A stretch of DNA of 64,000 nt from Octopus vulgaris (taxonomy: Eukaryota). Each line of letters begins with the position of its first letter. Within the stretch, counting starts at the first letter, position 1. This document shows, one piece after another, positions 10,233 to 38,131 of this stretch. Below the pieces are notes generated by a model. That model saw nothing but the letters and a program-made list of their open reading frames with translations. It had not been told where the DNA came from and ran no database searches. Location of the stretch: NCBI GenBank assembly GCA_951406725.2, contig OX597833.1:57970001-58034000 (forward strand). Direction: 5' to 3'. The position numbers and the translations under genes are program-made.

Positions 10233-10236
<4 letters not shown>
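9410..10236 (+). mobile_element. AT-rich Penelope-like non-autonomous element with degenerate hammerhead motif
   Basis: Bounded by (TA)n; CTGAAGA 10094 ... GAAACGTACC 10176; paralog at ~49865-50670, inverted copy ~43628-44327. Confidence 0.5.
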
Positions 10237-10325
<89 letters not shown>

Positions 10326-10740
10326 CTCTTTACAACTGCTTCCTTGTCCACTGAATACCTTTCATCATACACTACACGAAGCATTAAGTTACGTCGAACT
10401 TTGAAATTTTGCAGCCAACCACCACTATAATGACACTTATATTTTAGTTTAAGTATTTTGTGAGTCTAGAAGGTTTGTTTCTTCAATATTAGATCTGCAT
10501 ACAACTCATCACTTTCCCTTATACGTATCCTATGGGATCAAATTCATCAGAAATTCATCTAATTTCGATTTTTTTTCATCTTTCATTGTTTTCTTCTTAT
10601 ACATCTGTTTCTTTGAATAATTTATAGGAAAACAACAATCAAACACAACTGTATACTTTTATTTTTATTTTATTTCAATTTTTATTGTCAATTGTGGAAA
10701 ATCCAGTGCTGTTACAGGCATCTTGTAGACACAATGCTAT

Positions 10741-11479: not shown

Positions 11480-12067
11480 GCTCGCCGCATTTTAATGGGT
11501 CGTTTCTTAAACTTTGCTTGACCGGAAAAGGGTCAGAGGTATTTTCCAAACTCATTAATTTCTCTAAAAATAGACAGGACAAAGTGTTTTTCCGTCTGCT
11601 TGGGGCCAAACCACAAAACCAGGCCACAAGCACTCTTTCTCCGAATGACCCCCGTATCACTATTAAATTTCTTTTCAAATCTTCGAATTTATTTTTAATG
11701 AAAATTTTCCGATATTTTCAGTATATGAAATTAAATAAATTTCCTTTATTTATTCGGAAAATGGCAGGGGGTTAGACATGAACGAGATATTATAAGAAAG
11801 AGGAGAACAAATTGGAATAGTTTGTTTGTGTTTGTAAGTAATGTTAACCAAGTGATGCTGCATTGAGCTTATGCTACATGTTGGAACAATGGTATCAGGT
11901 TTCATGTCTGTTTGGTAACCTAGTTTACACACATCGATGCACTTGAAAATACATTTGTCAATCTGTAGTGAAATATGTTGACCATTGATATTAGAAGTCA
12001 TTGAGAGGAATCTGTTGGTGTGTGTGTGTTTATGTGAAATTGCTAAGGTTAATAAAATGTATGTATG

Positions 12068-12132
<65 letters not shown>

Positions 12133-12182
12133 AAAAAAGTCAAGGTAGAAAATGCTAAAATAATTATATAAAAAAAACATTT

Positions 12183-12218
12183 CATTACTGGTTTCAGTCA
12201 TTGAGACTTTTTCAACTG
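12183..12218 (-). ncRNA. Minimal type I hammerhead-like motif, U3:A8 variant (decayed)
   Basis: Minus strand: CAG UUGAAAA AGUC ucaau GACU GAAA CCAG UA AUG. Mirror on + at 41652-41687. Confidence 0.5.
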
Positions 12219-13318
12219 TAAGTATAGAAAACAATTAAATTTTGAAAAAATTAAATGAAAAGTACTTTAAAAGAATGTTTGCATAGTATTCAAATACAAG
12301 GGACATTTTCCGTGTTTCTGCCTGTCTCTGTCTCTCTTGTTTACTCTTGGGGGTTCGCGGTCATTGTGAATTCTTGGCAAAGAAGAAGAAGAAGAAGAAG
12401 AAGAAGAAGAAGAAGAAGAAGAAGGAGAAGAAGAAGAGAAGAAGAAGAAGAAGAAGAAGAAGAAGAAGAAGAAGGAGGAGGAGGAGGAGGAAATAATGTG
12501 GGAGTGCTATGATAGTAGTAGGATGTTAAATGGCGTTGTGCCCAGTAAGTGGATTGTTGTGGATGGTAGTTGTGATTGAATCCTTGTGATATCTCTTTTG
12601 AATGTATTGTTTATAATATTTTCGTAGGTGTTATTCTAAACAGCAGTAGTAGTAAAGTAAGGAAGGAGGTGGCGGAGAGGAACAAGAAGAAGAAAGAGAC
12701 AGAATAATAAGAGAATGCAGGTTGTTAGGATAGTAGTAGGATGTTAAAATTGTCAAGTGATCACTTTTAGGTCACTTGACCATTCAACATCCTACTACTA
12801 TCATAGCACTCCCGCATTATTTTCCTCTTTAAGTTAAAACGTTTTAATAAATAACTAATGTGGTTTGGTTAGTGGAATGTTTACATGTTTTTATGGGAAG
12901 TGCAGGGAAGTAACGAGGGTCTGATGATAAGTTTATATGTATTTTCTCTGTGATGTTTATTACATCGATTTCTTTTATGCCCCTTTAACTGAAAGTTACA
13001 ACACTTCCACGTATGGCTACCCTGTTGAAAGACTTTGCTGCCTCAGTTGTTTGCTTGTGTCCCAGAAAAGAGGCAAACAATTTACAAGGGCCAAATATGC
13101 CATTCAGTTCTTTAGTGCTTTCATATGAAATAGTATTAAAGTTCATCATCAAGACCTGTCACCGATGTTAAGTTACATCTGATGTAGAACTACCACAACA
13201 GCAGTAACTCTTAGATAGGACATTGCCAAAATGCAGACACATGAAATGATCTGCACACTAATGAACACGAACTAATATAGTCTGCAAAGGAAACTAAAAC
13301 TATTCATCTCTCTCTCTC

Positions 13319-13396
<78 letters not shown>

Positions 13397-14028
13397 CATT
13401 GCCATTTAAATTGAGGAAAACTTTTAAAATCTTTTGAAATTTCTGGCTTCATGTTTCCTGATAGTAAAATGTCGTCCTAACTTAGGTTATCGATCTTCAA
13501 TGATTTACTTGGTGTCTTTTGTTTAAATTAGTAATTTTTGATTGTTACTTATAGAATTCCAATATTCCAACGATGTTTCAGTATAATGCAAAAGTTTCGA
13601 GTTTTACATCATCCCAATATGTAGTCACGATTATCAAATGGATCTTTCAAGCAAAAGTATATCTCTAGATTCATTCTAATATTTTCTGCCACTTCTTCAC
13701 TGTTTGGGGATGTTAAAATATGTCAAAATGAAAGTTAGTTATGACGTCATCCTTTGAATGCTCTGACGTCATTTCAACGTTGGTTTCAGGGCCACATCCA
13801 TAACAAAGGCAGTAATATTTCCTGTAGAATTCTTTGCTACATTCAGCTTGTGTTTCAAAGAAAGGAGTAGTCTAAATTTATATGATTTTAAAAATTTAAC
13901 AGTAGATAAACGTGTTTGGTATTACTTCAGAAAACGTGAGATATATAACAATGAATTTCAAAATATTGTTGAGTATTATCAATAAAGAAAGTAATAAGGA
14001 AAGTATATTTATGAACACAATCTATCTT

Positions 14029-15510
14029 TTATAATTCACTCTTGTGAAGTATATTTTGGAACGCTTTGTCATTGGCAAGGTCTTCTACTGAGTGAATGAA
14101 TTCCAAAATAAATTTTTTGTATTCAGTATTTCCATTTCCATACTTATATAAATCAAGTACTATTTCCTTTATCTCCCAAATTTCTATCAGGTCTTTGTTG
14201 AAAGGAAGACATTGTACAGCAGATTTAAGAGCCAGAACAAACCTATTCATTCCAGAACGTCTTAATTGATCTTTTTCTTCTTCATCATTTTTTCCATCTG
14301 CTTCTTCAAAACATAATCTTCCAAACAAAATGTTAAAATTAACATCTTGCATTATATTATCTGCTTTAAATCTTTCACAATACTTCCTGGCATTGTCATA
14401 TTCTTTCAAAGAGATATATAATAAAATGATATCAAAGAGAGTAACTGAACATTCATGAGAAAGTTCAAGAGATTGTTCAAAGTGATATTCAGCTTTGTTG
14501 ATTAACTCATTCCTTTCTCTATGAGGAATACTTCGAACATGATATAAAACTTTCGCAAATACATTCGTTTCTTTTGAGAATTGTTTGTTCATTGGGACAT
14601 ATGTATATGTTGGTGTATACATTCTTAGATAAATTGATCCAAGCCGATGATGAGAATATGATGTTGCTGTTATTTCAATTGCTTTTTCAAACAATTCTCT
14701 TCCTTGTTCAAGCTGATTTGAACGTATATAATGATAGGCACTTTTCTCCAAAACATAGCGGTCATCAGGGGAAATATGAAGAGCTCTCTGAAAATACACT
14801 TCACATGGTTGACTGCGAAGAAGACAAGGAGTATGTTTAAACAAACCTATCAATGCTAATGTTCTACCCATTAGGGCCTTATCAATATGGTGTGGAAAAG
14901 CACATCGTATTTTCTCTAAGTACTGTATTGATTCCTTAATATTTTCACGCATTTTCTCTTGATCCATGGTCTTTCTTAAACAACGATATTGCAACAAAGC
15001 AATAGAAAACATACACAGATAATCGTCTGGACAAACGTTGAGAGACTCTTTGTAAAGTTCGATAGCTCTTTCATGATCTTTAAAAGATATAGTAGCTAAA
15101 CAATAAGCAACATTTCTTTTGCCTTCTGCTTCTATCAGCGAGAAATTTTCTCTTTCTTCAAGCTTGCTTAGATTATCCAAAAGGTTTCTTACCTCAGGGA
15201 TATTTCCATTGTACAAATGAATGAATGCAAGGTTGGTTAATGCCACCAGGTTATCTGGCTTCTTTTCTCGAACTTCATTGGCTAATTTTTCAGCTGAAAA
15301 TTTATCGTTCATCTGCCACAGAATATATACTAGGACGTTCTTTTGACGAATCTCATCTTCTAAACCAAATGAGATATCATTACTTAACGAATTTTCTACT
15401 TTTTTAGAGAGAGACGACCAAACGTCTTTGGTTTTCTCAAAACTTTCTTCCATTACATTTGGAAATCTTTTAATTCTCTCCCTATACGATTCTCTTCTAC
15501 TTCCTTCATC
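14029..15510 (-). CDS. Terminal coding exon (493 aa) of a TPR-repeat protein, IFIT/TTC22-like
   Basis: Open 1.48-kb frame after a polypyrimidine TTTCAG| acceptor; TPR-like helices such as NLVALTNLAFIHLYNG, ERAIELYKESLNVCPDD, YFQRALHISPDDRYVL, ELFEKAIEITATSYSHHRLGSIY, KAEYHFEQSLEL. Confidence 0.85.
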   Translation of the reverse strand, partial: DEGSRRESYRERIKRFPNVMEESFEKTKDVWSSLSKKVENSLSNDISFGLEDEIRQKNVLVYILWQMNDKFSAEKLANEVREKKPDNLVALTNLAFIHLYNGNIPEVRNLLDNLSKLEERENFSLIEAEGKRNVAYCLATISFKDHERAIELYKESLNVCPDDYLCMFSIALLQYRCLRKTMDQEKMRENIKESIQYLEKIRCAFPHHIDKALMGRTLALIGLFKHTPCLLRSQPCEVYFQRALHISPDDRYVLEKSAYHYIRSNQLEQGRELFEKAIEITATSYSHHRLGSIYLRMYTPTYTYVPMNKQFSKETNVFAKVLYHVRSIPHRERNELINKAEYHFEQSLELSHECSVTLFDIILLYISLKEYDNARKYCERFKADNIMQDVNFNILFGRLCFEEADGKNDEEEKDQLRRSGMNRFVLALKSAVQCLPFNKDLIEIWEIKEIVLDLYKYGNGNTEYKKFILEFIHSVEDLANDKAFQNILHKSEL

Positions 15511-15757
15511 CTGAAATAAAAACAAAAAGATTGCGTATGAAATATGATATCACACATTATCATTGACAAAAAAATATTCTCCAATTTTCGATTTTTAGTT
15601 AATGAAACAATGTCAAACCTTCCTAGTCTGATACGGTTGATGTAGTGGCTGAGCATTTTGGATTCGAATGTTCGATGTTTTGAATATACGCACAGAAAAC
15701 TGAGCGTAAATACGTGAGAGAACAATGTAAGGGGTGTGTTTGACAGAGTGATAAATG

Positions 15758-15791
<34 letters not shown>

Positions 15792-15899
15792 GTCAACATC
15801 AACAACAACAACAATATGAAGGACAGGCTGTTGCAGATCACTTATAATATGTAATATAATATGATATAACACTCTCTCACACACACATACACACACGCG

Positions 15900-17129
15900 C
15901 AAAAATAATGGAAACACCTAGCATCATAACATCATAATTTTGAGATATTTATAAAACCGTCAAAACGTTTTTTGATTTATTATTAGTGTTGCTTAATATG
16001 TTTTGCTAAAATTGCTTTTTCTTTTCAGATTTCATCAAAATAAGGTAATTAAAATTCATTAAGATGACAGATCTATCGGAGTTTCAAAGCGGTCAAATTG
16101 TTGGTGCTCGTATAGCAGGCGCTAGCGTAACGAAAACAGCTGAAATGTTTGGTGTATCAAGAAGTCTCGAAAGTAATGACAGCCTTTGAGAAAGAGGAAA
16201 AAAACCTCCTCGTTGAAACAAAACTCCAGAAGAAAACCAAAACTTCCAGATAGGGACCGTTGGATTCTTATGCGAATTATTAGAAAGAATCACAAAAGTA
16301 CAGCTCCCTAAATTACTGTAGAGCTTAATGACCACCTCGAGAACCCGGTTTCCACAAGAACAGTTCGCCGGGAGCTACAAAAGGCAGGATTTCAAGGGAG
16401 GGCTACAGTCAAGAAAACCACTACTTTCAAAAACAAACGTTGCAAAGCGTTTAGAGTGGAGTAAAAATCTACAGAATTGGTCCCCAGAGCAGTGGATGAA
16501 TGTTATTTTCTCGGACGAGTCATCCTTTACCTTTTTTCCGACCACGAGTGTACTTGTGGAGTCAGCCGAAAGAAGCATTTGACCCAGACTGCTTTCTTCT
16601 ATTAAACATGGAAGAGGATCTGCAATGATGAGCTTTGGGGGCTATATCTTGGAAATCCGCTGGCCCAATGAATTTCCTTCATGGCAGAATTAATAGACAT
16701 GACTATTTAAGCATTTTATCTAATCAAATTCATCCAGTGGTTGCAGAACTGTTTCCGGAGCGAAATGCAATTTTTCAGAATGATAATGCACAAATTCACA
16801 CAGCTAAAGTTGTTACTGAATGGTACGAGGAACATTTTAGTGAGGTTGAACATCTTATATGGCCACCACAGTCCCCAGGTCTCAATATTATTAAACACTT
16901 ATTGTGCATTTTAGAAAAATAAGGAAGGAGCCGATATCCTCCACTATCATCACTACAAGAACTGGAGACTATTTGAACAAAAATTCCTTTGGAAAGAATT
17001 CAAACTTTGTACAAGTCCATATCTTGTAGAATTCAACTTGTAATTACAGCCAAATATCAAAATTACTGCCATATCAAAATAAAGTTGTTTGAAATGTTAA
17101 TGTGTTTCCATTATATTGTCCAACCCCTG
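15900..17129 (+). mobile_element. Tc1 copy 2 (intronic, decayed)
   Basis: Near-identical to 66-1298; right TIR ends CAACCCCTG|TA. Confidence 0.9.
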
Positions 17130-19001
17130 TATAGGCTGAAACTGAAATCGCCGCACATTGAAACCGAACCCAGTAGCACAGGGTTGAGAAACAACTTTTA
17201 TACCTCACAACTACGTTTATAAGTATATAACACACACATATACACGCACACATACACTCGCACCTACACATTTATATATATTCATATATACATACATGTG
17301 TGTGTGTGTGTGCGCGCGTCTCCGAAAAGCAGCGAAATTATATATTTCTGTACAATTAATCTCTCTCTATATAAAGCTGAAGTTGTCTGTGTATGGAAGG
17401 TTTGGTAGCCTTCAACTAACACTATCTCCTCCGAGACCCTGCGGCAAAAGTTGACCAAAATTGAGAGTATGATAGAAGAAGGCTTGCTCTTCCTTCCGTA
17501 GAAGAAAAAATTCAAATCGGAGCATGTTAACAACAACAATTATTTACATGAAAAAGGTGTTTTTTTTCTATGAAAATCCTTATTTTTGACGATTTTTTTG
17601 ACTGCTCTGTCGCCACTTCTCGGTGTTTTTCAAACGGAAAAATGTTCACTTAAAGAGAATAACAAGCTACATAATGCAAAATTTTAACTTTTCGAAAATT
17701 CCAATTCTAAAGGATCGAAAGAAATCCGAGCAACGCCGGGTTATACTGCCAGTCTTCTATAAAATTGCATCACTATACTAAAAACTTAGATGTATAAACG
17801 CTGCACTCAATTTTAATACAGAGAAAAGGAATTTTACAATTTTATTTCAAGGGAACTAACTCAGTTAAACACACGTTTATATTGTCTCCCGTGTTTTATT
17901 AATCATGGCAACCTTTCCTTAACTATCATACACAAACCATAAAAGATTTATTCCACTTCGATGTTCATGTTTTTTTTTCTCTCACGAAAACACGACAGAA
18001 AATGAATCTTTTTGATTGCTGTTGTAGCGGTCATACGACTTTAGCAGCAGCTTGGGATCTTTTCGGTTTGAACGGCAGTTTTTTTAGCGGCGTCATATGA
18101 AATTGTCACCCATAATTATGACCCTAGTATCGATCTATTGCATTTCAATCTCTTTTAGGGTTAGGGTTAGTTAGGGTCAGGGTTAAGGGTGGGGGAAGGG
18201 TATCTTTTTTTCTTCACAAATGTAAATTACCCCAATCTGTTTCTTAAACGAGGGATATATTCATACGGCACACAATGCTTTTTAATTCAGTAGACGTCAC
18301 TGATTGGTTGAAATTGCAGAAATTGAAGAAAAAAACAACAAATATCTTACAAACTATAGAATTTTCTCAATAAAGCCAAGAGAAAAAGATGTTTTATAAA
18401 CACATTCTACCAGTATACGAAGTTTAAAACTTTTTAGTTACCTAGATATTATTTTAAAAACTGCCGTTCAAACCGAAAAGATCCCAGGGAGTTTTTGACC
18501 TCTAATTGCTTGGGTAATTGCTTGGATAATATCAGGTTATCAAATTTATCATAGGTTCGAAAAGAAATTGGATCGGTTATTTAGAAAATTTGAAACTTTT
18601 CTATTGTGGAAACATTCTACGTAAGAAGTATTTCTCAAGTTGACAATGGATTAGATTGAAGACATTCTGTGTGTCTGTCTGTGACGGTTTGTGTGTGCGT
18701 CTCTGACTTTGAGTGTGTGTGTTTGTGTGTGTATGAGTGTGTATGTGTGTGAGTGTATACACACACACGCGCGCGCATACACACACACGCACACACACAC
18801 ACAAACAGAGACGCACACGCATACAGTCACAGGCACATATACACACTCATACACACACAAACACATACTCAAACACACACACACACACGCAGAGTCAGAG
18901 ACGCACACGCATACAGTCAGACACAGTCACTGACACGTACACACTCGATCGGACGTGCGCACACAAAAATACTCACACACATACACACTCATACACACAC
19001 A

Positions 19002-19046
<45 letters not shown>

Positions 19047-19109
19047 AGAGTCAGAGACGCACACACAAACCGTCACAGACATGTATATACATGTATATAC
19101 ATGTATATT

Positions 19110-19402
19110 CTATGATTAAATGTTCGAGATATGAAATGTTATGTGGATGACCTTGCCTTTGTTTGTTCTGTAACCATAGTTTCTATATGTGACCACGTGA
19201 GTACCGCTGGCGATTTTTTTCTTCCGTCTTCCCTTCTCGGGATCTTTCCTTCTCCTATGTTTCCGACGAAGAGCTCCGCTCGAAAGGTTAAACCCTCCTT
19301 CTTCCCTTCTTTCCTGAGCGTCCAATAATACTTTATTTGTTCCACGTCCTCGCGTTGTTGTGTGTTTTTACATTTTTTTGTGTTTTCTTGTTTGGATTAA
19401 CT
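19110..19402 (+). mobile_element. Penelope pLTR-like repeat with hammerhead-like core
   Basis: CCGACGA-A-GAGC-TCC-GCTC-GAAA at 19263-19285; same family at ~61590-61780; mirror at ~34488-34780. Confidence 0.4.
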
Positions 19403-19419
19403 ATCATCATCATCATCAT

Positions 19420-19597
19420 CGTCGTTTAACGTCCGTTCTCCATGCTAGCATGGGTTGGACGGTTCGACCGGGGTTCTGGGAAGCCAGAAGGCTGCACCAG
19501 GCTCCAGTCTAATCTGGCAATGTTTCTACAGCTGGATGCCCTTCCTAACGCCAACCACTCCGTGAGTGTAGTGGGTGCTTTTTACGTGCCACCTGCA
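19420..19597 (-). mobile_element. SINE 3' part with RTE-like tail
   Basis: On its own strand GTTGGCGTTAGGAAGGGCATCCAGC ... CCAACCCATGCTAGCATGG..GGACGTTAAAC(GAT)n. Also at ~34292-34487, 48960-49380, 54000-54215, 60445-60716, 61232-61541, 63645-63890. Confidence 0.75.
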
Positions 19598-19598
19598 C

Positions 19599-19637
<39 letters not shown>

Positions 19638-19655
19638 CATATACGTGCCACCTGC

Positions 19656-19733
<78 letters not shown>

Positions 19734-20029
19734 CAACATTAATAGTGAAAGCTTTAGGGTGTGATCCACTGAGATCTGTAAAAACATGCTTCTCAGAGAA
19801 CAGTCATGGTAAAGCAAGAACGCCAATCAGTTTGTTGTTTTTATTCTGACACAGAAGCTTGATAAGCCACAGTTAGTGCTTTTGACTAATTGAAGGTTAT
19901 ATTACTTTACTATATTTTACTAATTGTACTGAGTTCTTTTTCACTCATTTCATACAACTAATGTGTGTGTGTGTGTGTGTGTTTCTCATTGAAGCTACAA
20001 AACGTCACAAACTGAGGTTCATGAAACCA

Positions 20030-20066
<37 letters not shown>

Positions 20067-20485
20067 GGAGGTGGGGAGGAGAGAGATAAATATATTGTTT
20101 AAAAGTTTAACTAATTGTGTAATTGGCCAGGAATGTCAGCAGCAATGTGCGTTCTATAATAGTTCTATAATAGTTCTATAATATATATATATATATATGT
20201 ACATACATTACAACATGTTTTGGCATAGTTTTTAATTAACAAATTCACTCACAAGGCATTGGTCCACCTGAGTCCATAGTAGAAGACACTTTGCCCAAGG
20301 GCTTGCCCAGTGGGATTGAACCAGGAACAATGTGGCTGTTAAGTGAATTTCTTAACCACACAGCCATGCTTATATATCTGTATATACACACATACTCACA
20401 ATTATGCATGGACACATATACATATGTATATACTATATATTGTATTTATATATATAAGACTCTGCATGTGTGTGTGGGGAGAGAG

Positions 20486-20531
<46 letters not shown>

Positions 20532-20943
20532 GATTGGTAGATAGGAAGATAGATAAGCAGATAAATATATAGACAGACAGACAGATTAAGTATGTAGACA
20601 TATGTCTTTATAAAATAAAGAAAAATAGATATATGGCTATATTTGTAATATATTGTATTCTATATATATATATGAATATATATATTTATGCGTGTATGTG
20701 TGTGTAATGTGGCGGTAGAAGTGTATTTTAGCTGAGCAATATACAAGGATACTATCAATGCGTATACAAACTCTCTCTCACACACACACACACATTTGTA
20801 TATGTGTGTGCATGTTCATATGTATACGCCACATTAAATTTGCGCTTGAAACGTAAGTGTATGCATGTATGTTTTTATATATATATATATATTCATTTGA
20901 TTGTCTCTGTAAGTGTATAAATATATATGTATTCGTATATATA

Positions 20944-20980
<37 letters not shown>

Positions 20981-21051
20981 TCATACATACATATATATAC
21001 ACGGGTTATATAAAAGTCTCTAAATTTACACTACATGAGTATAAGTGAATA

Positions 21052-22452
21052 TCAAAAGATATTTTCCGTATCCAACGCCCTCAACAACTCTGTGCCATTA
21101 AGCAGACGATCGCCCGACCAGACTGGAGCATTCACTTCACAGTCAGTCTGCGTGAGGTGTGGGAGCCACTTGGAGGCTGCAGCCAAGTCTGTGGTGAATG
21201 TATACGGCCTCATTAAATTCTGGTGTTTAGGAATTTTGGCTCTGAATTTCAGATTGTTGTTCTGCATCGCAGAAACGTATGCTGGTGACATAGGAAGAGA
21301 TTCAGTGGCCATGCTGTTGCTGCCATTCCTTTGCAGGGATAGTTTATCGCCATTGGAAACCAGAAGATGATCGTCATTATCATTGTACTCAAAGTGGTCG
21401 CCTGTTTTTGCGTCACGAGGGGAGTCAGTGGCACAGCTATTGACGGAGAATGTTCTTTTAGCAACAAGTTGCCAAACATTCTCCTCCTCATTGCTGTCAT
21501 TAGTAGTAGTAGTAGTAGTGTTAGTAGTAGTAGTAGTAGTAGTGGTGGTCGGTGATGGTGGTGTGCCTTCATGTGAATTTGAAACCCTATTCAGCTGTCC
21601 AGCAGGAATGAGATCAACACCGAACAGTGTTCGGATATCAAAGGATGAACTTGATGACCTGGCATCAGGCAAGGCATTAGAAAGGCCAGTCGTGTTGTTG
21701 ACTGCGCTGGTGCCCTCAGCTGAATTTGAACCCTTGGTCATCGTGTTTGACAGTGCCTGATCGTTTTGTCCTCCAGGGAGGTGATCCACACCAAACAGTG
21801 CTCGGCAGTCATCAAAGAGAAATGATGACATACGACGAGTACTACTACTACTGCTACTATTACTACTACTACTGGTGGCAGCGACCCTGGTGGGATTCTC
21901 AACAGAATGAGATACATCAAAGCTGGGGTTCCCTTTTGCTTGGGGAAGCCTCTCACCATACAGGGCTTGGATGTCATTGGAGGAGTCTGATTGTAGAGAA
22001 TTAGGCAAGAGGCAGCCCCCGACCGTGGGGATAAGAGTGCTCTTAACTGGATTTCAAACTCTGGTGGCAGCATTCAGTTCCCTCTGATCCAGCTGACCAA
22101 CTCCAACAAGGTCTTCACCAAACAGCGCTCGCTTATCGTAGGGTGGGCTCGGACTCCGTTGTACCATGGGAGAAGTAATGTTGGTTGTGGTGCCCTTCAT
22201 AGAATTTGAAACTCTGATGTTGTTGTTGCTGCACGAACTGGTGGTAATGACAAAACTGGGACCAGTTAATGTAGGGGACGTGACTGTTGTGTTGAGGGCC
22301 CACCACCATGCCCAATCCTGCTCTTCAGGTTGATTGGTTGACATGGAAGAACCATTGTTGTTGCCATGGGGATTCGCTGCTGTGATGGCCGTGTTGACAC
22401 TGATTGGGTTCTGGGTGGTTTGTCTTCTGCCTGTGAAAAACGAGTTGTCCAA
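21052..22452 (-). pseudogene. ~466-codon S/T/N-rich reading frame with a repeated DxRxLFGxDL motif and one in-frame TGA; unknown family
   Basis: ORFs 22054-22452 and 21052-22008 share a frame (starts 444 nt apart) and are separated by a single stop; GC-richer island between microsatellites; no clear ATG start. Confidence 0.55.
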
Positions 22453-22920
22453 TTTGGGGAGGGATTCTGCTATATATATATAACTATATATATATATATA
22501 TATATAAAATTAATTGTTATCGCCATATTAATATGGCATTCTTATAGATATAAGAATAATCGCTGCCGCAGGTGTCGCCACTGACGTCTCTGTTCGAAGG
22601 TTTCTATTTACCTAGTTTTAGTAGATTATATCCACTTGTTTTCAATAATAGAAATATTAAAATTACTAAGTCTCTATAAAAGAGATTACGGCACCGTTTA
22701 CTGGAAATTAATTGTTATCGCCATATTAATATGGCATTCTTATAGATGTAAGAATAATCGCTGCCGCTGGTCAGCTCCATGAGGCCACCGCCATCAAGAT
22801 AGCTATTGATACACGATCTGTATCCATTATAACCTTCGGTGAGCTAGCAGAAACGTTTGCTTGCCGAGCGTTTCTCTGTCCTTGTTTGTCCCCTCTGTGT
22901 TTAGCCCCTTGTGGGTAGTA

Positions 22921-22995
<75 letters not shown>

Positions 22996-23364
22996 ATACG
23001 CGTACACAAACATGTATACTTACATACATAAAACAAAACATACAAATATGCACGCGTATATATATATACATACAATAATGCCATCTTGTAATACCAGTGT
23101 AGGAGCCTTGATCTAGGTTAGGAACAAAATCTTTCTCTATTGGCAAGACATATTGCAATAAAACTGAATAATGGCATACATACGTATGTACGTATATACC
23201 TATACACATACACTTACAAACACACATGTACATATATGCATACATGCATACATACATACATACATACATACATACATACATACATACATACATACATACA
23301 TACATACATACATACATACATACATACATACATTTACGCACACATTCTGCAAGAAAAGGTATTA

Positions 23365-23776
23365 GGCGCAGGAGTGACTGTGTTAGGTAAGTAGCTTGTT
23401 TACCAACCACATGCTTCCGGGTTCAGTCCCACTGCGTGGCACCTTAGCGAGTGTCTTCTACTATAGCCTCGGGCCGACCAAAGCCTTGTGAGTGGATTTG
23501 GTAGACGGAAACTGAAAGAAGCCCGTCGTATATATGTATATATGTGTATATGTGTGTGTGTGTATGTTTGTGTGTCCGTGTTTTCCACCCTAGCATTGCT
23601 TGACAACCGATGCTGGTGTGTTTATGTCCCCGTTACTTAGCGGTTCGGCAAAAGAGACCTATGGAATAAGTACTGGGCTTACAAAAGAATAAGTCCCGGG
23701 GTCGAGTTGCTCGATTAAAGGCGGTGCTCTAACATGGCTGCGGTCAAATGACTGAAACAAGTAAAAGAGTAAAAGA
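23365..23776 (+). mobile_element. tRNA-derived CORE-type SINE
   Basis: Same head, CORE and tail as 4256-4620. Further copies at ~24924-25338, 30115-30520(-), 47910-48310(-), 48419-48833, 49521-49787, 54627-54995, 56960-57350, 59505-60153(-), 62875-63214. Confidence 0.8.
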
Positions 23777-23829
23777 GAGAGTATAGGGTGTACATTTGTT
23801 CATGCGAGTGTATATATTGATATACTCAC

Positions 23830-23880
23830 CTGTAGAATTTCCTGCAATTTCCCAGTTATTTTCTGCATTTCTTCAGCCAT
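23830..23880 (-). CDS. First coding exon (MAEEMQKITGKLQEILQ) of the TPR gene
   Basis: ATG at 23880, 17 codons, canonical CAG|GTGAGT donor in phase 0, matching the phase-0 acceptor at 15510; implies an 8.3-kb intron and a 510-aa protein; present in all three copies. Confidence 0.7.
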
Positions 23881-24057
23881 TCCTTTATAGCTGTGTGTGT
23901 ATAAAAAGGCAAATTTTCTTTGGACAACAAAATTTGTACGTTTTCTTTTTGTGAAATTATGCTTTCTGTTATATTCGTGAAATGAAGAAAGGTCAAGTTG
24001 TAGAAATGATATAATGAATAATAACAGTCACTATCTATATCCAATCTCTATCCAAGC

Positions 24058-24444
24058 TTCTCAGAAGGGTAAATATATGGCAACGAATATTATATACAGA
24101 GAGAGTGTCACTTTTTGTAAGTGTTCCTTTCTGGAAACCAGGTCCTATAGGAATGCTGGAAGTTGTGAAGGGATTAATAAAGTAAAATAGTCGAGATTGA
24201 AGAAGTAAAATAATTCAGAAATAATAAATCTGTTTTGGGAGTCTCAGAAAATAATAACAACGCCCGTTAATGTCACCAACTAAATGAGTAAAAGTGAAAG
24301 AATTCTCTGAAAACACGTCACATCCGGATTGACCTTCCCGAATTCTGGTGAATCGGAATTACGTGTCAAAAGTGAAAGTAATACATCGCTCTATTGTTAT
24401 GTCAGATACTTTCACTTTAATATTGAAACAATTAAAATGAAACT
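24058..24444 (-). promoter_or_regulatory. IRF-element/GAS motif cluster upstream of the TPR gene
   Basis: AAAAGTGAAAG 24290-24300, AAAAGTGAAAGT 24368-24379, ACTTTCACTTT 24408-24418; TTCTCAGAA 24058-24066, TTCTCTGAA 24303-24311. Confidence 0.5.
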
Positions 24445-25547
24445 ATTATGTAACAGGGATGAACTGTAACTGGACATACATTCTGCTAGACTTGCTTAGG
24501 TTCCATGTAGTGTCATGAGGAAAAAAAAATTTAACTTCTTGCCTAGGGCGAGCCAACAGCAATATCGTATCGAGGCTTCTTTCCCCTTAGCGTCCTACGT
24601 TTAACATTCACAAATTTGCTCAACATCTACTCAGGAGAAATACAAGGCAATATTATCGTTTGTCAACGACACATTTTAGGATGTATTGTGCAAGGTACAT
24701 GATGAGATAGGTCGATATTGCCTACCACTGTACCATTTCAGTGTTAGAGTATGTTTTAGATCTTTTCCTTTTGATAGCCAGATTTCAACACAATTTCTAG
24801 TTAACTAAACACTTTGGAAAAGATCCTATGTTTTATTTTTTGGTGTTATATTTTGATATTTTATTTTGCAATCGGAAATATTTTGTTTGCGCAATATACG
24901 ATCTTTCGTTTAAGGCGCCAATAGGCGCAGGAGTGGCTGTGTGGTAAGTAGCTTGCTAACCAACCACATGGTTCCGGGTTCAATCTCACAACGTGGCACT
25001 TTGGACAAGTGTCTTCTATTATAGCCGCGGGCCGACCAATGCCTTGTGAGTGGATTTGGTAGACGGAAACTGAAAGAAGCCCGTCGTATATATGTATATG
25101 TATATATGTGTGTGTGCACGTAAATGTTTGTGTGTCTGTGTTTGTCACCCCCCCCTCCGAACATCGTTTGACAACCGATGCTGGTATGTTTACGTCCCCC
25201 ATAACTTAGCGGTTCGGCAAAAGAGACCGATAGAATAAGTACTAGGCTTACAAAGAATAAGTCCTGGGGTCGATTTGCTCAACTAAAGGTGGTGCTCCAG
25301 CATGGCCGCAGTGAAATGACTAAAACAAGTAAAAGAGTATATATATATATATACTAAGGAATCTAATACGCTTGGCTTAGATTTTCCTTTGCGGCTGGCC
25401 AGGTCGGAGCAATCTCAAGATTAATCAGCCGAAATTGCGAGGATGATCCGGTTCTTGACTGAAGATTGAAGGCTTCGAATGTCCCGTCCGTGTTTTTTGA
25501 ATCGTCTTCTAAATGTTTTGCGTTCTTATCCCAGTTTGTGTTTTTTT

Positions 25548-26710: not shown

Positions 26711-27235
26711 GATACAGTTAAGTTTGCACCAAGTCCATCCTTTCAAGAACGAAATAACTATGAGTTTAGAAATGCTGACCACTAGGTAAAGAAAATTTAG
26801 ATTAATTCGATTGGCTATTGGTTTGAAATTTAAATCACAAAAGAAAATTATACGGTTGGTTAGTCAAGGAACGCCAATATTCACACACGCATCTACAGAT
26901 CAATCGCACATACACACATAGTTATATGTATATACATACACTTATACGCATACATAATCACAAGCAACAACTAGCACATAGATAAACAAAAAGGGAAGCA
27001 ACTATGCTACCATTTAGTCCTACAAAATTATAACTGTGCCTCAAATAACGAAAAAGAACCATCCATGCATTTCATAAAATATTTAATTTAGATATAAATA
27101 TATTTTTAAATATCAGTATGTTACTAAGTCAGATAATTATTTCATGGGTAACTTAAAATTTATAACACCGGTTTGCTGCATAGTAAACATACGGTTGTTA
27201 GATAAGGATGGACTTGGTGCAAACTTAACTGTATC

Positions 27236-27308
<73 letters not shown>

Positions 27309-28516: not shown

Positions 28517-30014
28517 CATTTATATATATATATATATATATGTAAAAAAACACAAACTGGGATAAGAACGCAAAACATTTAGAAGATGATACAAAAAACA
28601 CGGACGGGACATTCGAAGCCTTCAATCTTCAGTCAAGAACCGGATCATCCTCGCAATTTCGGCTGATTAATCTTGAGATTGCTCCGACCTGGCCAGCCCC
28701 AAAGGAAAATCTAAGCCAAGCGTATTAGATTCCTTAGTATATATATATATACTCTTTTACTTGTTTTAGTCATTTCACTGCGGCCATGCTGGAGCACCAA
28801 GTTGAGCAAATCGACCCCAGGACTTATTCTTTGTAATAGTACTTATTCTATATCTCTTTTAATAAGTTATACGTAAACATACCAGCATCGGTTGTCAAAC
28901 GATGTTCGGAGATTACAAACACAGACACTACAAACATTTCACACACACACATTATACATATACGACCGGGCTTCTTTCAGTTTCCGATTCCGTTGTGAGA
29001 TTCCTTAGTATATATATATATGCGCAAACAAAATATTTCCGATTGCAAAATAAAATATCAAAATATAACAAAAAATAAAACATAGGATCTTTTCCAAAGT
29101 GTTTAGTTAACTAGAAATTGTGTTGAAAATCTGGCTATCACAAAGGAAAAGATCTAAAACATACTCTAACACTGAAATGGTACAGTGGTAGGCAATATCG
29201 ACCTATCTCATCATGTACCTTGCACAATGCATCCTAAAATGTGTCGTTGACAAACGATAATATTGCCTTGTATTTCTCCTGAGTAGATGTTGAGCAAATT
29301 TGTGAATGTTAAACGTAGGACGCTATCAAAGGAAAGAAGCCTCGATACGATATTGCTGTTGGCTCGAGGCAAGAAGTTAAATTTTTCCTCATGACACTAC
29401 ATGGAACCTAGCAAGTCTACAAATGTATGTCTGATTACAGTTCATCCCTGTTACATAATATTCATTTTAATTGTTTCAATATTAAAGTAGATATCTGACA
29501 TAACAATAGAGCGATGTATTACTTTCACTTTTGACACGTAATTCCGATTCACAGAATTCGGAAGGTCAATCTGTGATGTAGAATGTTTTCAGAGAATTCT
29601 TTCACTTTACTCATTTAGTTAATTGACATTAACGGGCGTTGTTATTATTTTCTGAGACTCCCAAAACAGATTTATTATTTCTGAATTATTTTACTTCTTC
29701 AATCTCGACTATTATTTATTAATCCCTTCACAACTTCCAGCATTCCTATAACCTGGTTTCCAGAAAGGAACACTTACAAAAAGTGACACTCTCTCTGTAT
29801 ATAATATTCGTTGCCATATATTTACCCTTCTGAGAAGCTTGGATAGAGATTGGATATAGATAGTGACTGTTATTATTCATTATATCATTTCTACAACTTG
29901 ACCTTTCTTCATTTCACGAATATAACAGAAAGCATAATTTCACAAAAAGAAAACGTACAAATTTTGTTGTCAAAGAAAATTTGCCTTTTTTTATACACAC
30001 ACAGCTATAAAGGA

Positions 30015-30065
30015 ATGGCTGAAGAAATGCAGAAAATAACTGGGAAATTGCAGGAAATTCTACAG
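30015..30065 (+). CDS. First coding exon of the inverted TPR gene copy
   Basis: Reverse complement of 23830-23880; GTGAGT donor at 30066. Confidence 0.6.
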
Positions 30066-30914
30066 GTGAGTATATCAATATATACACTCGCATGAACAAA
30101 TGTACACCTATACTCTCTCTTTTACTCTTTTACTTGTTTCAGTCATTTGACCGCAGCCATGTTAGAGCACCGCCTTTAATCGAGCAACTCGACCCCGGGA
30201 CTTATTCTTTTGTAAGCCCAGTACTTATTCCATAGGTCTCTTTTGCCGAACCGCTAAGTAACGGGGACATAAACACACCAGCATCGGTTGTCAAGCAATG
30301 CTAGGGTGGAAAACACGGACACACAAACATACACACACACACATATACATATATACGACGGGCTTCTTTCAGTTTCCGTCTACCAAATCCACTCACAAGG
30401 CTTTGGTCGGCCCGAGGCTATAGTAGAAGACACTCGCTAAGGTGCCACGCAGTGGAATTTAGACCCGGAAGCATGTGGTTGGTAAACAAGCTACTTACCT
30501 AACACAGTCACTCCTGCGCCTAATACCTTTTCTTGCAGAATGTGTGCGTAAATGTATGTATGTATGTATGTATGTATGTATGTATGTATGTATGTATGTA
30601 TGTATGTATGTATGTATGTATGTATGTATGTATGTATGCATGTATGCATATATGTACATGTGTGTTTGTAAGTGTATGTGTATAGGTATATACGTACATA
30701 CGTATGTATGCCATTATTCAGTTTTATTGCAATATGTCTTGCCAATAGAGAAAGATTTTGTTCCTAACCTAGATCAAGGCTCCTACACTGGTATTACAAG
30801 ATGGCATTATTGTATGTATATATATATACGCGTGCATATTTGTATGTTTTGTTTTATGTATGTAAGTATACATGTTTGTGTACGCGTATATACATGTATA
30901 TATATATATATATA

Positions 30915-30964
<50 letters not shown>

Positions 30965-31431
30965 TACTACCCACAAGGGCTAAACACAGAGGGGACAAAC
31001 AAGGACAGAGAAACGCTCGGCAAGCAAACGTTTCTGCTAGCTCACCGAAGGTTATAATGGATACAGATCGTGTATCAATAGCTATCTTGATGGCGGTGGC
31101 CTCATGGAGCTGACCAGCGGCAGCGATTATTCTTACATCTATAAGAATGCCATATTAATATGGCGATAACAATTAATTTCCAGTAAACGGTGCCGTAATC
31201 TCTTTTATAGAGACTTAGTAATTTTAATATTTCTATTATTGAAAACAAGTGGATATAATCTACTAAAACTAGGTAAATAGAAACCTTCGAACAGAGACGT
31301 CAGTGGCGACACCTGCGGCAGCGATTATTCTTATATCTATAAGAATGCCATATTAATATGGCGATAACAATTAATTTTATATATATATATATATATATAG
31401 TTATATATATATAGCAGAATCCCTCCCCAAA

Positions 31432-32831
31432 TTGGACAACTCGTTTTTCACAGGCAGAAGACAAACCACCCAGAACCCAATCAGTGTCAACACGGCCATC
31501 ACAGCAGCGAATCCCCATGGCAACAACAATGGTTCTTCCATGTCAACCAATCAACCTGAAGAGCAGGATTGGGCATGGTGGTGGGCCCTCAACACAACAG
31601 TCACGTCCCCTACATTAACTGGTCCCAGTTTTGTCATTACCACCAGTTCGTGCAGCAACAACAACATCAGAGTTTCAAATTCTATGAAGGGCACCACAAC
31701 CAACATTACTTCTCCCATGGTACAACGGAGTCCGAGCCCACCCTACGATAAGCGAGCGCTGTTTGGTGAAGACCTTGTTGGAGTTGGTCAGCTGGATCAG
31801 AGGGAACTGAATGCTGCCACCAGAGTTTGAAATCCAGTTAAGAGCACTCTTATCCCCACGGTCGGGGGCTGCCTCTTGCCTAATTCTCTACAATCAGACT
31901 CCTCCAATGACATCCAAGCCCTGTATGGTGAGAGGCTTCCCCAAGCAAAGGGAACCCCAGCTTTGATGTATCTCATTCTGTTGAGAATCCCACCAGGGTC
32001 GCTGCCACCAGTAGTAGTAGTAATAGTAGCAGTAGTAGTAGTACTCGTCGTATGTCATCATTTCTCTTTGATGACTGCCGAGCACTGTTTGGTGTGGATC
32101 ACCTCCCTGGAGGACAAAACGATCAGGCACTGTCAAACACGATGACCAAGGGTTCAAATTCAGCTGAGGGCACCAGCGCAGTCAACAACACGACTGGCCT
32201 TTCTAATGCCTTGCCTGATGCCAGGTCATCAAGTTCATCCTTTGATATCCGAACACTGTTCGGTGTTGATCTCATTCCTGCTGGACAGCTGAATAGGGTT
32301 TCAAATTCACATGAAGGCACACCACCATCACCGACCACCACTACTACTACTACTACTACTAACACTACTACTACTACTACTAATGACAGCAATGAGGAGG
32401 AGAATGTTTGGCAACTTGTTGCTAAAAGAACATTCTCCGTCAATAGCTGTGCCACTGACTCCCCTCGTGACGCAAAAACAGGCGACCACTTTGAGTACAA
32501 TGATAATGACGATCATCTTCTGGTTTCCAATGGCGATAAACTATCCCTGCAAAGGAATGGCAGCAACAGCATGGCCACTGAATCTCTTCCTATGTCACCA
32601 GCATACGTTTCTGCGATGCAGAACAACAATCTGAAATTCAGAGCCAAAATTCCTAAACACCAGAATTTAATGAGGCCGTATACATTCACCACAGACTTGG
32701 CTGCAGCCTCCAAGTGGCTCCCACACCTCACGCAGACTGACTGTGAAGTGAATGCTCCAGTCTGGTCGGGCGATCGTCTGCTTAATGGCACAGAGTTGTT
32801 GAGGGCGTTGGATACGGAAAATATCTTTTGA
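31432..32831 (+). pseudogene. Inverted copy of the DxRxLFGxDL-repeat frame
   Basis: Mirror of 21052-22452 with the same TGA plus a 1-nt deletion near 31948. Confidence 0.5.
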
Positions 32832-32902
32832 TATTCACTTATACTCATGTAGTGTAAATTTAGAGACTTTTATATAACCCGTGTATATATATGTATGTAT
32901 GA

Positions 32903-32945
<43 letters not shown>

Positions 32946-33359
32946 TATATATACGAATACATATATATTTATACACTTACAGAGACAATCAAATGAATAT
33001 ATATATATATATATAAAAACATACATGCATACACTTACGTTTCAAGCGCAAATTTAATGTGGCGTATACATATGAACATGCACACACATATACAAATGTG
33101 TGTGTGTGTGTGAGAGAGAGTTTGTATACGCATTGATAGTATCCTTGTATATTGCTCAGCTAAAATACACTTCTACCGCCACATTACACACACATACACG
33201 CATAAATATATATATTCATATATATATATAGAATACAATATATTACAAATATAGCCATATATCTATTTTTCTTTATTTTATAAAGACATATGTCTACATA
33301 CTTAATCTGTCTGTCTGTCTATATATTTATCTGCTTATCTATCTTCCTATCTACCAATC

Positions 33360-33403
<44 letters not shown>

Positions 33404-33820
33404 CTCTCTCCCCACACACACATGCAGAGTCTTATATATATAAATACAATATATAGTATATACATATGTATATGTGTCCATGCATAATTGTGAGTATGTG
33501 TGTATATACAGATATATAAGCATGGCTGTGTGGTTAAGAAATTCACTTAACAGCCACATTGTTCCTGGTTCAATCCCACTGGGCAAGCCCTTGGGCAAAG
33601 TGTCTTCTACTATGGACTCAGGTGGACCAATGCCTTGTGAGTGAATTTGTTAATTAAAAACTATGCCAAAACATGTTGTAATGTATGTACATATATATAT
33701 ATATATATTATAGAACTATTATAGAACTATTATAGAACGCACATTACTGCTGACATTCCTGGCCAATTACACAATTAGTTAAACTTTTAAACAATATATT
33801 TATCTCTCTCCTCCCCACCT

Positions 33821-33860
<40 letters not shown>

Positions 33861-34156
33861 TGGTTTCATGAACCTCAGTTTGTGACGTTTTGTAGCTTCA
33901 ATGAGAAACACACACACACACACACACATTAGTTGTATGAAATGAGTGAAAAAGAACTCAGTACAATTAGTAAAATATAGTAAAGTAATATAACCTTCAA
34001 TTAGTCAAAAGCACTAACTGTGGCTTATCAAGCTTCTGTGTCAGAATAAAAACAACAAACTGATTGGCGTTCTTGCTTTACCATGACTGTTCTCTGAGAA
34101 GCATGTTTTTACAGATCTCAGTGGATCACACCCTAAAGCTTTCACTATTAATGTTG

Positions 34157-34232
<76 letters not shown>

Positions 34233-34250
34233 GCAGGTGGCACGTATATG

Positions 34251-34291
<41 letters not shown>

Positions 34292-34844
34292 GTGCAGGTG
34301 GCACGTAAAAAGCACCCACTACACTCACGGAGTGGTTGGCGTTAGGAAGGGCATCCAGCTGTAGAAACATTGCCAGATTAGACTGGAGCCTGGTGCAGCC
34401 TTCTGGCTTCCCAGAACCCCGGTCGAACCGTCCAACCCATGCTAGCATGGAGAACGGACGTTAAACGACGATGATGATGATGATGATAGTTAATCCAAAC
34501 AAGAAAACACAAAAAAATGTAAAAACACACAACAACGCGAGGACGTGGAACAAATAAAGTATTATTGGACGCTCAGGAAAGAAGGGAAGAAGGAGGGTTT
34601 AACCTTTCGGAGCGGAGCTCTTCGTCGGAAACATAGGAGAAGGAAAGATCCCGAGAAGGGAAGACGGAAGAAAAAAATCGCCAGCGGTACTCACGTGGTC
34701 ACATATAGAAACTATGGTTACAGAACAAACAAAGGCAAGGTCATCCACATAACATTTCATATCTCGAACATTTAATCATAGAATATACATGTATATACAT
34801 GTATATACATGTCTGTGACGGTTTGTGTGTGCGTCTCTGACTCT

Positions 34845-34887
<43 letters not shown>

Positions 34888-36760
34888 TGTGTGTATGAGT
34901 GTGTATGTGTGTGAGTATTTTTGTGTGCGCACGTCCGATCGAGTGTGTACGTGTCAGTGACTGTGTCTGACTGTATGCGTGTGCGTCTCTGACTCTGCGT
35001 GTGTGTGTGTGTGTTTGAGTATGTGTTTGTGTGTGTATGAGTGTGTATATGTGCCTGTGACTGTATGCGTGTGCGTCTCTGTTTGTGTGTGTGTGTGTGC
35101 GTGTGTGTGTATGCGCGCGCGTGTGTGTGTATACACTCACACACATACACACTCATACACAAACAAACACACACACTCAAAGTCAGAGACGCACACACAA
35201 ACCGTCACAGACAGACACACAGAATGTCTTCAATCTAATCCATTGTCAACTTGAGAAATACTTCTTACGTAGAATGTTTCCACAATAGAAAAGTTTCAAA
35301 TTTTCTAAATAACCGATCCAATTTCTTTTCGAACCTATGATAAATTTGATAACCTGATATTATCCAAGCAATTACCCAAGCAATTAGAGGTCAAAAACTC
35401 CCTGGGATCTTTTCGGTTTGAACGGCAGTTTTTAAAATAATATCTAGGTAACTAAAAAGTTTTAAACTTCGTATACTGGTAGAATGTGTTTATAAAACAT
35501 CTTTTTCTCTTGGCTTTATTGAGAAAATTCTATAGTTTGTAAGATATTTGTTGTTTTTTTCTTCAATTTCTGCAATTTCAACCAATCAGTGACGTCTACT
35601 GAATTAAAAAGCATTGTGTGCCGTATGAATATATCCCTCGTTTAAGAAACAGATTGGGGTAATTTACATTTGTGAAGAAAAAAAAGATACCCTTCCCCCA
35701 CCCTTAACCCTGACCCTAACTAACCCTAACCCTAAAAGAGATTGAAATGCAATAGATCGATACTAGGGTCATAATTATGGGTGACAATTTCATATGACGC
35801 CGCTAAAAAAACTGCCGTTCAAACCGAAAAGATCCCAAGCTGCTGCTAAAGTCGTATGACTGCTACAACAGCAATCAAAAAGATTCATTTTCTGTCGTGT
35901 TTTCGTGAGAGAAAAAAAAACATGAACATCGAAGTGGAATAAATCTTTTATGGTTTGTGTATGATAGTTAAGGAAAGGTTGCCATGATTAATAAAACACG
36001 GGAGACAATATAAACGTGTGTTTAACTGAGTTAGTTCCCTTGAAATAAAATTGTAAAATTCCTTTTCTCTGTATTAAAATTGAGTGCAGCGTTTATACAT
36101 CTAAGTTTTTAGTATAGTGATGCAATTTTATAGAAGACTGGCAGTATAACCCGGCGTTGCTCGGATTTCTTTCGATCCTTTAGAATTGGAATTTTCGAAA
36201 AGTTAAAATTTTGCATTATGTAGCTTGTTATTCTCTTTAAGTGAACATTTTCCGTTTGAAAAACACCGAGAAGTGGCGACAGAGCAGTCAAAAAAATCGT
36301 CAAAAATAAGAGATTTTCATAGAAAAAAAACACCTTTTTCATGTAAATAATTGTTGTTGTTAACATGCTCCGATTTGAATTTTTTCTTCTACGGAAGGAA
36401 GAGCAAGCCTTCTTCTATCATACTCTCAATTTTGGTCAACTTTTGCCGCAGGGTCTCGGAGGAGATAGTGTTAGTTGAAGGCTACCAAACCTTCCATACA
36501 CAGACAACTTCAGCTTTATATAGAGAGAGATTAATTGTACAGAAATATATAATTTCGCTGCTTTTCGGAGACGCGCGCACACACACACACACATGTATGT
36601 ATATATGAATATATATAAATGTGTAGGTGCGAGTGTATGTGTGCGTGTATATGTGTGTGTTATATACTTATAAACGTAGTTGTGAGGTATAAAAGTTGTT
36701 TCTCAACCCTGTGCTACTGGGTTCGGTTTCAATGTGCGGCGATTTCAGTTTCAGCCTATA

Positions 36761-37989: not shown

Positions 37990-38097
37990 CGCGTGTGTGT
38001 ATGTGTGTGTGAGAGAGTGTTATATCATATTATATTACATATTATAAGTGATCTGCAACAGCCTGTCCTTCATATTGTTGTTGTTGTTGATGTTGAC

Positions 38098-38131
<34 letters not shown>

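Follow-up and report, generated by a model that had tools for sequence, protein, structure and literature searches.

A cluster of IRF-type elements in the candidate promoter of a tandemly duplicated octopus gene with a predicted IFIT fold

Did IRFs drive IFIT-like effectors before interferon existed, and if so, by descent or by convergence? One locus of Octopus vulgaris is a concrete case for asking this. The origin of IFITs and of their link to the ISRE has been placed in jawed vertebrates, together with interferons, and invertebrate matches have been rejected (PMC3688568, according to its account of the family); an IFIT-like gene paired with IRF control before interferon would, if true, contradict this. 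It is already known that IRF elements occur at invertebrate immune genes, and NCBI automatic names call these octopus genes IFIT-like. We analyzed a stretch of 64,000 nucleotides, which we call the window, containing one such gene on the minus strand. The gene has two coding exons:

23830 to 23880, minus strand: coding exon 1, 17 codons followed by a GTGAGT donor (phase 0)
14029 to 15510, minus strand: coding exon 2, 493 amino acids and a stop codon, preceded by a TTTCAG acceptor; a TPR protein with a predicted IFIT fold

Joined, the two exons make an open frame of 510 codons. In the database paralogues P0002 and P0011, the N-terminal peptide of exon 1 is fused straight to exon 2, so the relevant ATG is the one at 23880. 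An additional middle exon near 15.7 kb was considered and dropped, since the paralogues fuse exon 1 to exon 2 directly. We also checked for an intron in the 5′ UTR: an acceptor-like tract precedes the ATG, and the 880 bp upstream contain no GT[AG]AG donor.

Upstream of this ATG lie four IRF-type sites and two GAS-like elements:

24290 to 24301, plus strand: site 1, AAAAGTGAAAGA, IRF-E with one mismatch; the closest of the four to the gene
24368 to 24379, plus strand: site 2, AAAAGTGAAAGT, exact IRF-E; also of Blimp-1 type
24408 to 24419, minus strand: site 3, TAAAGTGAAAGT, exact IRF-E, in the opposite orientation to sites 1, 2 and 4
24433 to 24444, plus strand: site 4, TAAAATGAAACT, IRF core AANNGAAA with an ISRE-like 3′ end, GAAACT; outside the Blimp-1 G3/G9 rule
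24303 to 24311, no strand assigned: GAS-like element TTCTCTGAA, 2 bp from site 1
24058 to 24066, no strand assigned: GAS-like element TTCTCAGAA, at chance level and possibly within the 5′ UTR

A motif scan found AAAGTGAAAG at 24291-24300 (+), 24369-24378 (+) and 24409-24418 (-); counted from 24290 to 24419, the three span 130 bp. This agrees with a sequence-only reading of the locus, which had reported three such motifs on both strands within 130 bp. The extended form, AAAGTGAAAGT, is present at 24369 (+) and 24409 (-), not at 24291. The three motifs and the two GAS-like elements lie 178 to 539 bp upstream of the minus-strand ATG, and the earlier estimate of 180 to 550 bp is therefore confirmed. 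For scoring we used AAASYGAAASY, which we take to be the extended IRF-E consensus, built on the core AANNGAAA. A scan with this consensus added the fourth site, AAAATGAAACT, with one mismatch at 24434 (+); the segment marked in the sequence-only reading ended at 24444 and also takes it in. By this measure two of the four sites are exact and two have one mismatch, all inside 155 bp (24290-24444) and 410 to 565 bp 5′ of the ATG. The core itself, AANNGAAA, is described as the IRF core (PMC7819612).

We then asked how often such a cluster arises by chance. Against 20,000 dinucleotide shuffles of the 880 bp upstream of the ATG, there were 2 exact matches to AAASYGAAASY (shuffle mean, 0.016; P 3e-4) and 5 matches at no more than one mismatch (mean, 0.33; P 5e-5); the fifth of these, at 24104, has a broken GAAA core and was left out of the site count. 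We also simulated 12 Mb with an order-2 and 12 Mb with an order-4 Markov model, both built from the 41,354-base remainder of the window after de-duplication, microsatellite masking and removal of the promoter copies. This remainder contains no exact IRF-E match. Four such sites within 160 bp occurred in neither simulation, and three within 130 bp occurred 0 and 4 times. Tested against a matched background, as the earlier reading had proposed, the IRF elements are thus in clear excess: the cluster is non-random, far above chance. It would still hold after roughly correcting for several hundred families of motifs, and the IRF family was predicted from the identity of the gene.

Single IRF-like words carry little information in this DNA. 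An abundant SINE with GAAACTGAAAG supplies 15 of the 30 one-mismatch matches in the background, so such a word by itself is no sign of a regulated gene. The signal is the cluster, lone IRF-like words being common in this genome. The SINE carries (G/A)GAAACTGAAAGA, a tandem-GAAA, ISRE-like word; 17 of 21 GAAACTGAAA matches stand in that context. SINE copies are found, for example, at 4378, 7017, 23508, 25066, 46002, 48162, 48563, 49663, 51088, 57102 and 63017; one is about 320 bp into intron 1, and another is about 620 bp past the cluster. It is possible that this SINE is a source of candidate IRF sites genome-wide. The window holds other repeated DNA as well: an array at 51676-54049, in which a 67-bp unit that comes from a common octopus repeat stands about 35 times, and interstitial TTAGGG tracts (6080-6156, 46663-46713 and 47240-47303) inside an element of about 430 to 800 bp with inverted ends.

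The promoter segment itself recurs in the window in four places:

4624 to 5415, minus strand: copy A, promoter and exon 1 (ATG 4724), with AAAGTGAAAG sites at 5135-5262
5428 to 5551, no strand assigned: older partial duplicate of sites 2 to 4, 79% identical, with a 14-base deletion
29015 to 30114, plus strand: copy C, promoter and exon 1 (ATG 30015), within an inverted duplication
55246 to 55290, minus strand: relic of site 1 and its GAS-like neighbor, 45 bp, between two repeat insertions

All nine AAAGTGAAAG matches in the window (9/9) trace to one promoter: three in copy A, three in the copy described above (copy B), two in copy C and one in the relic, at 55266. All copies go back to one ancestral promoter, and the effective sample is one. 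Copy A, whose exon 2 would fall before base 1 of the window, differs from copy B by 10 substitutions in 792 bases, none of them in motifs; against 70 in 2,914 bases of intron, this conservation of the promoter does not reach significance (P 0.053). Between these two copies, four adjacent substitutions at 24335-24338 convert TTCCCGAA to AAATCGAA. The surrounding interval between sites 1 and 2 (24314-24365) holds TGACGT and two ACGTG words, which we take to be CRE/HRE-like. NF-κB consensus patterns have no match in the 64-kb window, including the 880 bp upstream of the gene. Between copies A and B lies a 520-amino-acid open frame (7807-9369, plus strand) for a non-LTR-type reverse transcriptase (RVT_1, E 4.2e-32).

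The two partial copies are more diverged. The duplicate at 5428-5551 has 15 substitutions in 124 aligned bases and none in 17 invariant core positions (P 0.095). The relic at 55246-55290 matches at 37 of 45 bases (E 4e-6), and outside the 10-mer its flanks agree at 27 of 35 bases; its 8 substitutions in 45 bases spare all 12 invariant positions (P 0.064). Taken together, the two give P 0.037 for constraint, a weak value that is biased on the side of the relic, which was found via its motif. The sequence-only reading had mentioned a lone IRF-like motif at about 55265. This motif is not lone: it is the site 1 homologue within the relic, complete with its GAS neighbor, and we ruled it out as background. 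Beyond the relic, from 55.3 to 64 kb, neither tblastn with four paralogues and with their N-termini nor a scan for an ATG with a donor turned up a gene copy.

Copy C is indel-rich, has lost site 3 and is followed by a frameshifted exon 2. Its arm differs by 66 indel events versus 29 substitutions in 15.4 kb, with 34 of the 95 difference events in the last 0.9 kb, and ends at a 100-N gap. Given this indel load, the frameshift and the end at the gap, we treated copy C as a probable artifact of assembly and did not count it as an independent paralogue. The whole near-palindromic duplication (9536-24898 and 29015-44327; center, 26714-27248; N gap, 44328-44427) is 98.9% identical, with indels rising towards the center, and is probably an assembly artifact. 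Database protein P0008 derives from its frameshifted gene copy. The duplication also mirrors, at 31375-32831, a HIF-alpha fragment of intron 1 (21052-22509, minus strand) that ends in the C-terminal transactivation domain (PF08778, E 5.2e-13). This fragment is on the strand of the gene, has an in-frame stop near 22054, finds no match in the copy A intron, and is probably a displaced piece of the last HIF-alpha exon.

Where transcription begins decides how close the cluster is to the start. Three features bear on this:

23881 to 24320, minus strand: ATG-free stretch of 440 bases, candidate 5′ UTR
24287 to 24278, minus strand: Inr-like TCATTTAGTT, candidate start near site 1
24096 to 24090, minus strand: TATA-like TATATAA, alternative start-site element

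On the strand of the gene, 23881-24320 contains no ATG against 5.3 expected (P 0.0012; 5,000 shuffles), versus 8 on the opposite strand, and only 2 of 1,587 background ATG gaps are as long as 440 bases. The ATG-free stretch suggests that the transcript may begin just after site 1 and have a leader of about 400 bases. Inr-like words, of which there are 9 in 880 bp, occur too often to carry weight. A predicted start near 24285 would put the four sites within about 160 bp of it; a start from the TATA-like element at 24096 would not. With a start just after site 1, the placement would be that of vertebrate IFIT promoters, which are described as having at least two ISREs near the start site, within about 200 bp (PMC3688568).

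The sequence-only reading had counted the GAS sites as support for the module, while cautioning that they arise often by chance. It is the caution that held. Both elements, at 24058 and 24303, are TTCN3GAA palindromes. Their count in the 880 bp upstream, 2 against a mean of 0.40, is not significant (P 0.058; 20,000 dinucleotide shuffles), and we do not claim a GAS excess. At least two GAS are present in 601 and 543 of 12,000 simulated 1-kb blocks, about 5%, so two per kilobase is ordinary. Only the element at 24303 is suggestive. It had been described as directly following an IRF motif; it is there, at 24303-24311, although two bases after site 1 and not abutting it.

A GAS adjoins only about 0.5% of simulated IRF sites, and site 1 with the GAS-like element at 24303 could possibly form an IRF-STAT composite. 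This rarity is one argument for a two-tier IRF and STAT module in which both GAS sites function, a reading that would add to the IRF reading and does not exclude it. Another is the relic, whose GAS-like element, TTCTGTGAA, is at unchanged spacing from site 1 and has changed only in the variable middle. We nevertheless consider it unlikely that both GAS sites function: apart from their ordinary number, neither is TTCCNGGAA, the canonical high-affinity STAT1 GAS, which has 0 occurrences in the 64-kb window, and the element at 24058 may lie in the transcribed leader.

The canonical ISGF3-type ISRE is a tandem GAAA, GAAANNGAAA. This form is absent from 23881-24760 and occurs 28 times elsewhere in the window, the nearest instances being the SINE copies at 23508 and 25066. 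Since there is no TTCCNGGAA in the window and no tandem GAAANNGAAA upstream of the gene, we type the sites, by their motifs, as IRF1/2-type (IRF-E) elements and not as ISGF3-type tandem-GAAA ISREs. The proposal of an interferon-stimulated-gene-like module thus survives in one part, the non-random IRF cluster, which is linked to exon 1 in 3/3 full copies, and finds no support in the other, with the GAS count at chance level and no tandem ISRE upstream of the gene.

Could the sites belong mainly to another factor? Sites 1 to 3 contain AAGTGAAAG, the BLIMP1 consensus core, with both G positions that are critical under the G3/G9 rule, and the overlap of IRF-E and BLIMP1 sites is described as probably ancient (PMC2938208). 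Blimp-1/PRDM1 might therefore be the main reader, repressing or patterning the gene, with IRFs in a minor role. This is quite unlikely in our estimate. Site 4, AATGAAAC, and site 2 of the diverged duplicate, ATCGAAAG, lose the BLIMP1 G positions and keep AANNGAAA; in that duplicate, site 2 became AAAATCGAAAGA by changes at two variable positions that removed the Blimp-1 GTG and left the IRF core. In mammals, moreover, overlapping sites are reported to act as antagonistic IRF/BLIMP1 switches, with IFIT2 among the targets (PMC2938208), so Blimp-1 would be a co-reader rather than an alternative.

The sequence-only reading had also warned that the segment could be repeat-derived. A low-copy repeat or small hairpin element with no regulatory role at the gene would account for the 12-bp inverted repeat that sites 2 and 3 form and for the 45-bp piece 31 kb away, which sits among repeats and downstream of which no exon turned up; octopus repeats such as the SINE can carry IRF-like words. 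However, all three full promoter copies in the window are attached to exon 1, and, apart from the two homologous pieces, none of the many repeat copies in the window has a match in 23881-24750. In the diverged duplicate the inverted repeat is broken while the IRF cores are retained, and the flanks of the four sites differ from one another. The distribution of the segment within the 64-kb window is not that of an interspersed repeat: there are three gene-linked copies, one adjacent duplicate and one relic. From what the window shows, a repeat origin without a regulatory role is quite unlikely.

We turned next to the protein. A phmmer search of PDB with exon 2 gave IFIT5 (E 4.2e-7) and IFIT1 as the five best matches. 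The AlphaFold2 model of the exon-2 protein has a pLDDT of 91.0 and a pTM of 0.88, and Foldseek with this model again put IFIT5 and IFIT1 first (E 7.5e-11). In a VIA structure comparison, IFIT chains filled the top 13 rows, the best of them, IFIT1, aligning over 420 residues with Z 27.6 and rmsd 4.1, and the best non-IFIT TPR protein reached Z 20.4 with 291 residues aligned. The window protein is thus predicted to have the full-length IFIT TPR fold, and the IFIT-like call stands on this fold. A family profile of 56 sequences (window exon 2, 8 named octopus proteins and 47 further relatives) found IFIT1 and IFIT5 as its best natural matches (E about 1e-30), which extend from the N-terminus onward. 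TTC22 clusters, however, have Atlas scores of 0.96 to 0.97, equal to those of IFIT clusters. Read by eye from the phmmer alignment to IFIT5, R186, Y250 and H287 are kept, K150, R253 and Q288 are changed (K150 and R253 to T and E), and 33-41 are outside the alignment; we take these IFIT5 positions to be residues that bind 5′-triphosphate/cap RNA.

Homologues of the exon 2 open reading frame (15510-14029, minus strand) fall into 14 clusters; for 13 of these the named source is Octopus vulgaris, O. sinensis or O. bimaculoides. Eight of the 14 share one 73.56-Mb contig, and the gene has the two exons and the tandem clustering of the IFIT family. A profile search for further relatives returned the same 14 octopus proteins and 23 generic TPR proteins. 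Longer members of the family, of 736 to 741 amino acids, have a C-terminal TIR-like domain by Atlas features (0.89-0.90, a lead), and the C-terminal part of the family profile matches the TIR of TLR15 (E 6.2e-8). Pfam found no TIR family in P0012 and P0013; among 31 of the 150 listed relatives, with the best 5 families for each, it showed TIR_2 for one (P0056, E 2e-4, below the cut-off). A trace of this domain is left behind our gene:

13393 to 13940, minus strand: decayed C-terminal region with a TIR-like domain, behind the stop codon of the 510-amino-acid gene

By tblastn this region is 44 to 47% identical to the 736- to 741-amino-acid paralogues in two frames, and it has stops in all frames. 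The same C-terminal region is intact in P0012 and P0013, and an IFIT-fold TPR protein fused to a TIR could be a directly signaling sensor. The family profile, with its C-terminal TIR match, resembles invertebrate TPR-TIR proteins, from which the window gene differs in having lost the TIR region. Longer members with a TIR domain also set the family apart from vertebrate IFITs, none of which, to our knowledge, has one. By these alignments and profiles, the gene is a member of an IFIT/TTC22-like TPR family whose longer members are TIR-bearing. The motifs had been offered as independent support for the IFIT call. Because the Atlas scores are equal and longer members carry a TIR, what the motifs support is an immune role, not IFIT orthology.

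We give the least credence to a promoter that binds IRF for constitutive, tissue-level expression, or that is the functionless inheritance of a decaying duplicate: the copy in the window no longer has its C-terminal domain, has a HIF-alpha fragment in its intron and is changed at the K150 and R253 positions, and IRF1 supports basal expression of defense genes, as suggested also for invertebrates (PMC7819612), but the 510-codon frame is open and the shortened, TIR-less form is annotated in three Octopus species.

What we see directly is the cluster, its position and its linkage to exon 1, together with a predicted IFIT fold. We think it probable, from these motifs and alignments, that the segment serves as proximal promoter in an octopus family of IFIT-fold TPR proteins that has expanded in tandem, and that an IRF-family factor reads the cluster of four sites. 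Pathogen sensing, of the RLR-MAVS or STING type, would activate an IRF1/2-like factor, which would occupy several AANNGAAA sites at once. Transcription would then begin, probably just downstream of site 1, and produce a leader of about 400 bases. Control by IRF would be direct, with no need for interferon. More tentatively, a STAT may add input at the GAS-like element at 24303 beside site 1, and Blimp-1 may compete at sites 1 to 3 and switch the gene off. The product, derived from a TPR-TIR protein by loss of the TIR, would serve inside the cell as an immune effector or decoy. A broader idea, which we hold to be possible though doubtful, is that the pairing of an IFIT-fold effector with an IRF promoter predates interferon and was present in the bilaterian ancestor as IFIT/TTC22-like TPR(-TIR) genes. 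Vertebrate IFITs would then be TIR-less descendants that were later wired to interferon, while octopods would have independently lost the TIR, expanded the family in tandem and kept the IRF switch. For practical use, the locus provides work on cephalopod IRF signaling with a candidate target and reporter that is endogenous, and the gene is a likely marker of the antiviral state in a farmed species.

How does this promoter compare with known systems? In titles and the beginnings of abstracts, mostly of papers from outside the subscription journals, we found no report of a mollusc IFIT-like gene, of its promoter or of its induction. In the octopus hemocyte study, IRF3, IRF7 and Stat-1 are named only in the legend of a figure color-coded for presence and absence (PMC4199593). 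Other invertebrates provide a context for IRF control. Invertebrate IRFs are described as retaining the GAAA-contact residues (PMC7819612). Oyster CgIRF2 and CgIRF8 are reported to be induced by poly(I:C) and to activate ISRE reporters (PMC5557890), and shrimp LvIRF to bind the endogenous Vago4 ISRE in EMSA (PMC4602278). In Nematostella, genes induced by poly(I:C) show an enrichment of IRF and STAT motifs (PMC8476169), and single knockdown of IRF or STAT is reported to have left cGAMP-induced genes unreduced (PMC8713801). The likeness, on these accounts, is that IRF-type elements stand at immune genes of animals without vertebrate interferons; the targets there are cytokine-like genes, mammalian reporter promoters and gene sets, whereas ours is an IFIT-fold gene of a cephalopod.

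Among mammalian sites, the closest are the overlapping IRF-E/BLIMP1 elements. The AAAAGTGAAAGT core in the BTN3A3 and SP110 probes is also that of sites 2 and 3; BTN3A3, SP110, PSMB8/10 and IFIT2 were assigned by ChIP and EMSA in human cells, the octopus sites from sequence alone (PMC2938208, as it presents these targets). Vertebrate IFITs are the nearest counterpart as whole genes. Their promoters carry tandem-GAAA ISREs, whereas the octopus sites are of the AAAAGTGAAAGT IRF-E type with one of the four inverted. Their exon 1 is described as holding the ATG and two further bases, in contrast to 17 codons in phase 0 here (PMC3688568). The shared features are several IRF-family elements 5′ of the gene, as described for IFIT1, IFIT2, IFIT3, IFIT5 and the zebrafish genes, together with a two-exon structure, tandem duplicates and nearly all of the coding sequence in exon 2 (PMC3688568).
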